DNA from: a virus
IMG/VR virus record: IMGVR_UViG_3300028920_000002
Location: 96,001-160,000 of that record
Length of the DNA stretch: 64,000 nt
Reading direction: 5' to 3' (one strand)
Positions within the stretch are counted from its first letter, which is position 1. Each line of letters begins with the position of its first letter. The notes below the pieces were generated by a model that did not search any database, was not told the origin of the DNA, and saw only the letters and a program-made list of their open reading frames with translations. Below are positions 19,052 to 49,082 of the stretch, piece after piece. Made by a program: the position numbers and the translations under genes.

Positions 19052-19126
19052 GCGGGTGTACCTCAGCTGGCAGAGGGCCGGGCGTAAAGAACCCGGACGT
19101 CGGTGGTTCGAGCCCATCCACCCGCG
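19052..19126 (+). tRNA. tRNA gene with a 9-nt anticodon loop (CGTAAAGAA); identity undetermined; no encoded CCA
   Basis: Acceptor GCGGGTG/CACCCGC, D CCTC/GAGG, anticodon stem CCGGG/CCCGG, 5-nt variable loop, T GGTGG-TTCGAGC-CCATC, discriminator G then CTA. Confidence 0.85.
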
Positions 19127-19130
19127 CTAG

Positions 19131-46749: not shown

Positions 46750-47051
46750 AGAAGGTGACGTGGGAAGCCACGACTGAGCGCATGTACGTTCAGCTAGTGC
46801 AGGAAGTACCCGAGGAGAAAGACCTGACCATGTCCAACGGGATGATGGCCATGACTGATTCGTTTCCTACTTCCTACCTCATGATTGGCAAGCCGGGGTC
46901 CAAGGAGCGCACGCGTGTGGAGGGACCTGACGCCGAGCTGCTGCTTCTGGCGCTCGGCAAGGTGATGTCCATGAGGCCCGGGGCCGGGATGCATACTATG
47001 GGTCGCATTCCCATGCCGCCGGGTACTAGCCCCTTCGGCTCTGTAGGCTAG
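46746..47051 (+). CDS. Hypothetical protein
   Basis: ATGA coupling. Confidence 0.55.
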   Translation: MKKVTWEATTERMYVQLVQEVPEEKDLTMSNGMMAMTDSFPTSYLMIGKPGSKERTRVEGPDAELLLLALGKVMSMRPGAGMHTMGRIPMPPGTSPFGSVG

Positions 47052-47108
47052 CAAAGTAGGCGGGGGCTGAGGTATAACAGGGGTGGAGTGAGAACCACTT
47101 CACTCTTT

Positions 47109-47475
47109 GGGCCTGAACTGGTTTCGACGTGGAGGAATCAAAGTAGTTGCGTGCAGGCGGTGCTCGACCCGCCTTGACCAATCGAGCAACGGCAGTTGCC
47201 AACGACAACGCCACCCCCGCTCTCGCAGTCGACAAGGCTGCGTGAGCCGTTCGCCTGGGTAGGAGCCCAAGTACCCCAGGGGACGTCATCAGAACATGGG
47301 TGGACAGCGGGAAAGACTGCTGACTCTCAGGAAAGACTGAGTGGTGGAGGTGCCTACCAACCCCCGAGGCGCCAATCGGTTGCTGGATGAACCAAAACCA
47401 ATCGCCAGCTACGCACGTGAACGAGACTACTGAGTGAACTTCGCGGACCCGGGTTCGATTCCCGGCGGGTCCACC
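47109..47475 (+). ncRNA. ssrA: tmRNA, tag peptide ANDNATPALAVDKAA
   Basis: 5' GGGCCTGAACTGGTTTCGAC; 3' CCGGG-TTCGATT-CCCGG-CGGGTCC-ACC; G3:U70 pair; pk1 (GGCGG/CCGCC with TGCTCGA/TCGAGCA); resume codon GCC at 47198, stop TGA 47243-47245. Confidence 0.93.
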
Positions 47476-47478
47476 GGG

Positions 47479-48112
47479 TTCTGTCAGGTGTGGGTAAAGG
47501 AGGGGATGTAGCGCTCCCTCCCAGCAAACCTCGGGAAGTGGTGCACCACTTTCTGCTGTTAGGCTGCCTGACAGAGCACGAGACTTGTCCCCATCAGTCT
47601 CGCAGTATTCTGGTGGGGGCACGACGGAAGGTAGGAAACACGTCAGTTAGCTGCTGTCGCAAGCCCTACTGAAAGTGAGGTCGCTAGGAGGACATCCTGG
47701 AGAAGGCCCTGTAGGCAATTAGAGCTCAATGGTTCGCCCAGTCCTCGAAAGCCGACCTTCTCCCTGTTGTGTCGTACGGTGTACCTCGGGCCCCATCAAC
47801 ACAGGGTATGGTGTGGGCCCCAACTCTATCCCGGGTACTAGATACCCCGGTGGGTAGGTCAGCGAGACGCTCTTGGTAGCTGACCAACAACGGTTCTCTC
47901 TTTTGGGAGGCCGACAAGGAGCCGGGGGTCAGGTGAAGACGGTTAGCCTGACCACCGAACACCATGATGTGACCGCTCCCCAGCAGGGTTTGCACGCTTT
48001 CCCCACTGATGTTAGAAGTGTGCGCCCCCGACGTCCCGCAAGGCGTCGGGGGCACCAGCAGCGGGTTCGATGCGGCCTACCCCCCAAGGCTCACGGGCCC
48101 GCTGCCTTTTCT
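47479..48112 (+). ncRNA. Putative large ornate ncRNA (~630 nt)
   Basis: No credible ORF; more than a dozen helices, two similar pseudoknots, a GNRA loop and a terminal hairpin with T-tract. Confidence 0.6.
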
Positions 48113-48135
48113 TAGCTCTCTGCTAGACTGGCGTC

Positions 48136-48516
48136 GTGGCCATCAGCGAAAAAGAGCAGGGCGAGGACAAAGCCCGAGAGGACTTTCACTTCGTTGAGCG
48201 TAGGGCAGTCAACAACGCCTACGCCGCCCTTGTGGGTCGGCAGTACACAGAGTCGCAGCAGGCGTTCACCTTCGAGGAGGCGTTGGACGCCCATATCGAA
48301 GCCATCGAGGGGAAGGATGACCCTCTGCATCCCAACGAGCTCAACCGGGTGAGGCGCATTCGCAACGAGCTCAATGCCGCTGTGGATGCCATCAAGGCGC
48401 TGCCTCCCGAAGCGTTCGTGCTCGAGGCCAGCGAAGAGGACGTCAACACCGAAGAGGTCCTCGAGGAGCGCACCGCCGCCAAGGAAGCGGCGAATGAGCA
48501 AGCCTTCGGCTCCTAG
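48136..48516 (+). CDS. Acidic helical hypothetical protein
   Basis: 126-aa ORF with GTG start. Confidence 0.55.
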   Translation: MAISEKEQGEDKAREDFHFVERRAVNNAYAALVGRQYTESQQAFTFEEALDAHIEAIEGKDDPLHPNELNRVRRIRNELNAAVDAIKALPPEAFVLEASEEDVNTEEVLEERTAAKEAANEQAFGS

Positions 48517-48533: not shown

Positions 48534-49082
48534 ATGACTACGTCTCTCTACTGGGAGAGTGCTCCTGACCCCGACGGGGACCATGAGGAGACAGAAGAAG
48601 AGCGGCGCAAGCGTTTCGACCGCAACATGGAGAACGCTGTGCACGCGATGCTGGTGTGGGCGGAGGAGGTGAGCAAGTCCAACGCTCAGCTCAGCAGGGC
48701 GCTGTCTGGTAAGGACGAGTATGGCACTCCTGACTACAACCCCGACAATCCGTTGGCCAAGATTGCGGACAAGTTGGGTGATATCGTCAACATGCTAGGT
48801 GGCTACGGTGGCACCAGTCCGTTCCAAGGTATCGAGACGGCCATCAGCGAAATCTCCGAGGCAGCTAACTCGGCCAAGACTGCGATGGACAAGACCTTGG
48901 GCAACGCCGCGCTCGATGCCCTACGCTCCGAGAATCAACGACTCACGCACTTACTGTTCCAGGTTCTTGGCAAGGACCTAGAGCGTTCGGATGAGCCGTT
49001 CATGACCGCCCTTCGCCGAGCGATGAGGGAAGCCGAGGAGTCTCCAGCCCAGTCGGAATCTCCTCCTGACCAAACCGATTGA
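48534..49082 (+). CDS. Hypothetical protein
   Basis: GGTATAA motif upstream; 182 aa. Confidence 0.6.
   Translation: MTTSLYWESAPDPDGDHEETEEERRKRFDRNMENAVHAMLVWAEEVSKSNAQLSRALSGKDEYGTPDYNPDNPLAKIADKLGDIVNMLGGYGGTSPFQGIETAISEISEAANSAKTAMDKTLGNAALDALRSENQRLTHLLFQVLGKDLERSDEPFMTALRRAMREAEESPAQSESPPDQTD

Follow-up and report, generated by a model that had tools for sequence, protein, structure and literature searches.

What does a phage keep in 660 bases of gene-free DNA directly behind its tmRNA gene, in a genome whose genes are otherwise tightly packed? The locus belongs to a complete 186,723-bp IMG/VR phage with direct terminal repeats, of which bases 96001–160000 make up the window analysed here (64,000 nucleotides; window positions are used throughout). 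The window has ~60% G+C and carries its tightly packed genes on the plus strand. The tmRNA gene, which the first-pass annotation had placed upstream of the gap and on which ARAGORN and Rfam (RF00023, 104.4 bits) agree, occupies 47109–47475 on the plus strand, and its 3' end as encoded reads ACC, not ACCA. The gap follows directly on the 3' end of this full tmRNA (47476–48135), and the only ORFs that can be drawn in it are short (60–109 aa) and unconserved. The next credible gene (48136–48516, plus strand) codes for a protein of 126 aa that belongs to no family and has 10 homologs (tblastn against the related contig L013, E = 2.5e-41), whereas a gene for a 101-aa protein borders the block of tmRNA and gap on the other side. 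According to Pfam searches, SmpB (PF01668) and a CCA-adding enzyme (PF01743) are absent from the phage genome. With a tmRNA gene that encodes only ACC, the phage must rely on host factors. Elsewhere in the window (19052–19205), two tandem tRNA genes with enlarged anticodon loops are called as Phe with the anticodon AAA.

About 30 nt before the tmRNA, a promoter-like -10 word is found on the plus strand (47071–47078). This word (GGTATAA followed by C or G) recurs before the tmRNA in three diverged phage lineages, at a distance of ~85 nt in L023 and L025 and of ~22 nt in L014. Its six copies genome-wide are no more than expected by chance, and a sigma-70 scan calls nothing at 47071–47078. The word near 47071 may act as a promoter. 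Another copy lies 9 nt before the start codon at 48534.

Evidence for a folded, non-coding RNA on the plus strand

With the 126-aa gene as an anchor, relatives of the locus were reached via the flanking proteins, and four related metagenomic versions were found. In L029/L030, the upstream gene and a tmRNA are followed by 307 nt of the stretch, after which the contig ends. L013 begins within the tmRNA and contains a 427-nt version of the stretch plus downstream genes. In L023/L024 and in L025 the tmRNA is followed by a structured stretch of ~600 nt that ends in a hairpin and T-tract, by ~150 further non-coding bases, and then by an endolysin-like gene. The nearest relative of the latter gene in the genome collection (L037, 46% identity) resides on a 76-kb contig from a Lentisphaeria MAG bin, possibly a weak hint at the host.

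The view that the gap is non-coding withstands comparison with these relatives. Neither the ORF list nor six-frame tblastn against the relatives revealed a conserved open frame in the gap; tblastn returned only matches of 12–36 aa, which lie in all frames and on both strands at blocks of conserved nucleotides. The plus strand is predicted to fold with an MFE of -287.5 kcal/mol (z = -4.1 against dinucleotide shuffles), compared with -261.1 kcal/mol (z = -2.5) for the minus strand. In alifold, the plus strand reaches energies of -85.8 and -55.5 and the minus strand only -62.6 and -45.2, and both projected comparisons described below contain many G-U pairs on the plus strand.

To avoid circularity, structure prediction used only the window sequence, and the resulting fold was projected on structure-blind MAFFT alignments. 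Between 47826–48120 and L013, which share 54% identity, 17 of 98 projected pairs are changed on both sides (0–3 in slid controls) and 88% of the cells are paired (slid controls 34–45%). For 47583–47845 and L029 (58% identity), both-sided changes affect 11 of 80 projected pairs (slid controls 1–4), and again 88% of the cells are paired (slid controls 37–47%). A neighbouring gene served as coding control in a comparison with L013 (70% identity); here 5 of 100 pairs are changed on both sides (slid controls 0–2) and 83% of the cells are paired (slid controls 36–42%). The RNA comparisons thus contain 28 both-sided pair changes versus 5 in the coding control, and varying pairs stay standard in 53 of 94 cases (56%) in the RNA versus 15 of 49 (31%) in the control (Fisher p = 0.003), all of these being pairwise statistics, which are weak for two sequences, on four related versions from one narrow clade. 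About 12 of the seemingly broken RNA pairs sit in two helices that were misaligned by MAFFT and that are both kept when inspected by eye. For example, helix 47927–47933 / 47947–47953 corresponds to L013 315–320 / 336–341 and shows two double changes. Double-change counts from column-shuffled alifold runs are uninformative for two sequences and were not relied on. The covariation results are good evidence, not proof, and the part of the gap whose conservation emerges from these alignments is ~47583–48113 only. It appears very likely that the locus encodes a conserved structured non-coding RNA tied to the tmRNA.

Layout of the structured stretch

All stems listed in the first-pass annotation exist in the sequence where they had been placed, and the plus-strand fold reproduces most of them. 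The stretch opens with domain 1 (47476–47578, plus strand), a three-way junction in the MFE fold closed by 47480–47488 / 47567–47575. This is the multiloop domain proposed earlier; it does appear in the MFE fold, but it is found in this phage only and has no counterpart in L029, L013, L023, or L025. In the absence of a homolog, thermodynamic stability alone speaks for it. In the relatives, its slot is taken by 50 other nt (L029) or by an HNH gene (L023/L024). Domain 1 also contains a strong Shine-Dalgarno-like word, followed after 2–3 nt by an ATG (47506–47508) and at once by a TAG (47509–47511; whole arrangement 47496–47511). This could be chance, and the word doubles as one strand of a hairpin. 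A small ORF behind a Shine-Dalgarno word in L029 was considered and rejected, because it is not conserved.

Hairpin a (47586–47621, plus strand) combines a 12-bp stem with a conserved 12-nt loop (47598–47609) and is supported by changes in the relatives. Its region is 96% identical to L029 across 47 nt, whereas the adjoining tmRNA is only 73% identical. Among four sequences, one pair of the stem is changed on both sides and five on one side, and three are mismatched, all of them in L023. The hairpin occurs once in the 187-kb genome. An H-type pseudoknot had been proposed at this site, but the stem that it involves (47579–47585 / 47596–47602) is absent from L029, L023, and L025, and the claimed pairing turns out to be the plain 12-bp stem of hairpin a. 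A kissing contact of the hairpin a loop with the loop at 47864–47869 was rejected as well, since it is not kept in L025.

Directly 3' of hairpin a lies the conserved 8-nt word CGACGGAA (47622–47629, plus strand). The window, L029, and L023 have it behind hairpin a; after hairpin a of L025 it is CGACGAA, but L025 also has the word immediately behind the tmRNA 3' end. Next comes hairpin M (47630–47670, plus strand), in which a variable outer stem and an internal loop lead to an inner stem and a loop that are conserved. Within this inner stem, one pair is CG, CG, AU, and UA across the four lineages, and the outer stem, as read from the sequences, differs in each lineage yet pairs in all of them. 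The conserved single-stranded word GAAAGUGAGG (47671–47680, plus strand) follows hairpin M in the window, L029, L023, and L025; it has a second copy in L029 and L025 and a single copy in this genome. The body of the middle unit (47681–47820, plus strand) comprises a domain closed by 47699–47706 / 47756–47763 and a bulged hairpin at 47788–47820. The latter had been read as a second pseudoknot; it is better described as a plain bulged hairpin, whose inner half covaries with L029 and whose bulged base is kept.

The 3' domain (47830–48023, plus strand) consists of hairpins at 47830–47850, 47857–47885, and 47892–47913, a Y-shaped element (47918–47979), and a hairpin at 47992–48023 with a fully conserved 16-nt loop (48000–48015). 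It is followed by hairpin b (48024–48057, plus strand), a tRNA-like minihelix made of a 12-bp stem (48024–48053) and the word ACCA (48054–48057). A long GC-rich hairpin and T-tract then close the stretch (48058–48113, plus strand; stem 48058–48105, T-tract 48107–48113) and form a probable intrinsic terminator. Five pairs of the long stem are changed on both sides relative to L013, and the T-tract is kept in L013, L023, and L025. A consensus terminator scan does not list this element, because it permits loops of 3–8 nt only. Overall, changes in the relatives support the helices at 47586–47621, 47699–47706 / 47756–47763, 47788–47820, 47830–47850, 47857–47885, 47992–48023, and 48024–48053 as well as the inner stem of 47630–47670 and the terminal stem 48058–48105.

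Modular make-up and relation to catalogued RNA families

The relatives differ mainly in which parts of the stretch they contain. L029 and L013 share the end of the tmRNA, diverge right there, and rejoin just after a hairpin. The swapped part measures 93 nt in L013 versus 291 nt in L029, and L013 lacks hairpin a and the whole middle unit. The absence of the entire 5' half from L013 means that this half may be dispensable or even selfish. The two segments (L013:106–198 and L029:1245–1535) have the appearance of two haplotypes in one metagenome (IMG 3300031585) that differ by a clean module swap, although an assembly artefact is possible. L025 carries two middle units in tandem, whereas L023 has one. 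In L023, an HNH gene and hairpin a are inserted exactly between the last base of the tmRNA and CGACGGAA; in L025, the first unit starts with CGACGGAG directly after the tmRNA 3' end. As the start of the unit follows either hairpin a or the tmRNA end, hairpin a and the tmRNA acceptor end are interchangeable neighbours of the unit start. The borders between modules coincide with the 3' ends of the tmRNA or of hairpins with 12 stacked layers. The homology of the window type with the L023/L025 type has no other basis than hairpin a, the start of the unit, and hairpin b. Judging from these sequence comparisons, the stretch is modular rather than one monolithic fold. The earlier description of a ~630-nt ornate non-coding RNA is therefore upheld as far as structure and lack of coding capacity are concerned, but a single ornate RNA with pseudoknots is at odds with the modularity of the relatives.

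The inserted gene encodes an HNH_3 endonuclease directly after the tmRNA 3' end (L023:4529–4984, L024:2765–3220). It is missing at the corresponding site of L025 (L025:3100–3110), though L025 is 97% identical further downstream. This pattern amounts to a presence/absence polymorphism of a homing-type gene inside a non-coding unit.

The location of the block also varies. In the window it lies between the genes for the 101-aa and 126-aa proteins. In L023 and L025 these two genes are adjacent, and tmRNA and RNA are found three genes further on, before the endolysin-like gene. Since the flanking genes are neighbours there without the block, the RNA travels with the tmRNA and not with the downstream gene. 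Homologs of the 126-aa gene in L014, L015, L016, L017, L018, and L019 come without the RNA. More distant relatives have other arrangements behind their tmRNA genes: an ORF follows directly in G001, ~100 nt with a terminator in L014, and a terminator, a tRNA, and an HNH gene in G006. Gene-free structured stretches after the tmRNA were also noticed at L046:5606–6060 (G007; ~450 nt, after two small ORFs) and L048:1871–2160 (G004; ~300 nt), the latter containing a short hairpin followed by ACCA. However, blastn of the spacers of the window, L029, L013, L023, and L025 against the post-tmRNA stretches of L046, L048, and L014 found nothing significant, and the L046 and L048 stretches thus cannot be called homologs.

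The RNA had been suspected to lie outside the known families, and the family searches bear this out. A cmscan of 46900–48400 against Rfam 15 (E<=10) gave the tmRNA and chance-level matches only, the best of the latter being Scr3202 with 29.7 bits versus a cut-off of 52, and no family matched the spacers of L013, L024, L025, and L029 either. At the same threshold, the covariance models of GOLLD (RF01998), ROOL (RF03087), OLE, HEARO, and raiA had no match, nor had those of group I and II introns. The models of RNase P RNA (RF00010, RF00011, RF00373) also remained without a match at E<=10, in agreement with the earlier statement that no RNase P signature is visible. Some words in the stretch are reminiscent of CR-II, which is a lead only. 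Several other identities were considered and rejected. For a second or permuted tmRNA (RF00023, RF04321), the stretch 47439–47637 scores 18.8 bits with RF04321 (cut-off 47), and this score is carried by the 3' end of the real tmRNA. A duplicated tmRNA and a decayed tRNA array lack any match to the respective models. A group I or II intron with a homing endonuclease disagrees with the missing intron match, with a tmRNA that is complete without splicing, and with the free-standing HNH ORF of L023/L024. The motifs are single-copy, which speaks against a genome-wide phage promoter or repeat, and the hairpins are not copies of the tmRNA end, as would be expected of an attP-type element.

Searches for further members were equally restricted in outcome. 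No match was obtained by blastn of 47000–48200 against 50,697 phage records, and a blastn comparison of the window RNA with G001, a relative of 427 kb, yielded chance-level similarity only (best E = 1.6). Scans with the conserved words found nothing, or chance matches within genes and unrelated terminator-like hairpins, in viral contigs; L013 only, plus two coding chance matches, in metagenome contigs; and none in genome contigs. The hairpin a pattern, with three mismatches allowed, is not found in five related phage genomes. A covariance model of 47962–48064 (R1) searched over 20 loci recognized its own two sequences alone as significant, and L025 scored only 11.9 bits. The RNA is outside every catalogued family, and its own family is tiny and confined to one phage clade.

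Minihelices, a proposed processing model and its alternatives

Eight copies of hairpins a and b were folded, and each shows 12 stacked layers although stems and loops differ; hairpin b keeps this length in the window, L013, L023, and L025. In tRNAs, the acceptor and T stems stack to twelve layers. Behind hairpin b stands ACCA in the window and L013 but ACCU in L023/L025; no CCA is found after hairpin a. In L023/L025 the loop of hairpin b measures 7 nt and is T-loop-like, and the 3' strand of hairpin b together with ACC is the best-conserved word across the lineages. Both hairpins have the ~12 stacked base pairs of an RNase P minihelix substrate; by the textbook rule, however, hairpin a would be a poor substrate owing to its lack of CCA and its 12-nt loop. 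Bacterial RNase P does cut tRNA-like substrates other than tRNA, phage RNAs included (PMC11143913). No internal promoter-like or terminator-like site before 48058 was found in the scan. Because no terminator-like site separates the tmRNA from 48058 and the terminator hairpin is kept in L013, co-transcription is likely, and tmRNA and RNA probably form one transcription unit.

A model that combines these features would start the transcript at a probable promoter near 47071 and end it at the hairpin and T-tract 48058–48113. Its part 47476–48113 would be a non-coding plus-strand RNA made together with the tmRNA and built as a chain of modules, namely domain 1, the middle unit (47622–47820), and the 3' domain (47830–48057 including hairpin b). 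Minihelices that resemble a tRNA acceptor mark the borders, namely the 3' end of the tmRNA itself, hairpin a, and, with ACCA behind it, hairpin b. Host tRNA-processing enzymes may then cut this precursor, with RNase P acting at the 5' side of the minihelices and RNase E, RNase Z, or exonucleases at their 3' side. Host factors would have to serve here, as the phage lacks SmpB and a CCA-adding enzyme. Besides the tmRNA, such cuts would release one or two stable RNAs, the final one of which would end like a tRNA. Modules are probably also exchanged, doubled, or deleted at these hairpins in the course of evolution. A modular, co-transcribed RNA that is punctuated and cut at tRNA-like minihelices would be the best explanation overall, with a probability of roughly 0.5 on the available sequence data; the processing steps taken by themselves are put forward more tentatively. 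A further extension is a long shot: the released 3' RNA (~47622–48057) could terminate in a true acceptor end of the tRNA type, finished by the CCA enzyme of the host and perhaps charged, and it could act together with the tmRNA in rescuing ribosomes or in countering a host attack on tRNA ends, for instance in the role of an adaptor or decoy.

Alternatively, the stretch might be one large RNA that works intact like GOLLD or ROOL, with peripheral modules and with minihelices that are structural elements instead of cut sites. Some 530 nt of conserved structure would fit such an RNA, and the conserved loops of hairpin a (12 nt) and of 48000–48015 (16 nt) could make tertiary contacts. It also shares with GOLLD (PMC6582537) the setting within a tRNA-type unit of a phage and a neighbouring HNH gene. 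This reading is nevertheless unlikely, because half of the molecule is missing in L013 or duplicated in L025, an ORF interrupts it in L023/L024, all supported helices are local with no long-range helix or pseudoknot among them, and Rfam offers no match. Quite unlikely, too, is a selfish or recombining array of cassettes behind tRNA-like 3' ends, in which the hairpins re-create the landing site and structure is kept for the array's own transfer. Cassettes would explain why presence/absence variants have their borders precisely at the end of the tmRNA or of a hairpin, why a locus has one to two units, and why a homing-type HNH gene occupies the same slot. Yet each genome has the motifs once only, without further copies elsewhere in the 187 kb; six related phage genomes and the scanned public collections yielded none; no recombinase is adjacent; and the abundance of G-U pairs speaks for an RNA fold rather than folded DNA. 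The observed variation could also stem from ordinary recombination between hairpins a and b, which look alike.

The remaining readings fare less well. A purely cis-acting 3' trailer of the tmRNA, i.e., a stabilizing or insulating tail plus terminator that shields lysis and tail genes and has no function in trans, is improbable. It would account for the two strong hairpins and the T-tract that end just before the next gene, and other phage tmRNA genes are indeed followed by a terminator (L014, G006), but these manage with ~100 nt, and conserved loops and covarying helices over 500 nt far exceed the needs of a terminator. The position directly upstream of the gene at 48136 and the terminator-like hairpin at the end, as in attenuators, would suit a leader or riboregulator of the downstream gene. 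This is very improbable, since the RNA is followed by the 126-aa gene here but by the endolysin-like gene in L023/L025, always with the tmRNA on its upstream side, and since the 126-aa gene does without the RNA in L014–L019. Equally remote is the idea of chance hairpins in a decaying, functionless spacer or of unrecognised small genes. GC-rich DNA folds well by chance, and ORFs of 60–109 aa can be drawn, but the compensatory changes are well above both the slid and the coding controls, the 47-nt block is 96% identical beside a 73% identical tmRNA, and conservation is not frame-specific.

A modular RNA cut at minihelices would have partial counterparts among known systems. GOLLD is a large phage RNA that is found among tRNA genes, has an HNH endonuclease gene at its locus, and contains an embedded (pseudo-)tRNA (PMC6582537). 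The RNA described here resembles GOLLD and ROOL as a large structured phage RNA placed among tRNA-type genes, but it matches neither model, lacks a conserved multi-stem core or pseudoknot, belongs to one small clade, and has modules that come and go between close relatives. Non-tRNA substrates of RNase P include pre-4.5S RNA, the C4 antisense RNA of P1/P7, and phage M3 RNA, in which a hairpin imitates the stacked acceptor and T arms and is followed by a 3' RCCA word (PMC11143913). Hairpin b has this very form (12 bp plus ACCA), whereas hairpin a lacks the CCA, and the RNAs between the marks are much larger here and unrelated in sequence.

The stable RNAs C and D of phage T4 (species 1 and 2) are single units of 119–139 nt that are cut from a tRNA operon transcript. 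They share with the present RNA the tie of a phage non-coding RNA to a tRNA-type gene and, as we infer for the latter, co-transcription and release by tRNA processing; unlike them, it is ~640 nt long, consists of several modules, and lies behind a tmRNA. In eukaryotes, the cloverleaf-like tRNA-like element of MALAT1 (mascRNA) lets RNase P define the 3' end of a long non-coding RNA. The likeness lies in a tRNA-like element that ends a long non-coding RNA, and the difference in a full cloverleaf-like fold there versus a minihelix here. The sole Rfam match to this family (16 bits, E = 5.4) is inside the tmRNA itself.

Phage-borne tmRNAs are poorly understood, and to our knowledge no companion that travels with them has been reported. 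That a conserved RNA moves as a block with the tmRNA points to a role connected with ribosome rescue or with how tRNA-like RNAs are handled in the infected cell. Hairpins of 12 stacked layers, one of them with an ACCA tail, suggest that phages may use host tRNA-processing enzymes as punctuation for additional non-coding RNAs, and the module swaps at the same hairpins hint at a wider, as yet undescribed way of building RNA arrays, although the small size of the family speaks against it. If the long-shot role in ribosome rescue or in countering attack on tRNA ends proved true, this RNA would represent a new class of phage RNAs acting on the translation-rescue machinery.
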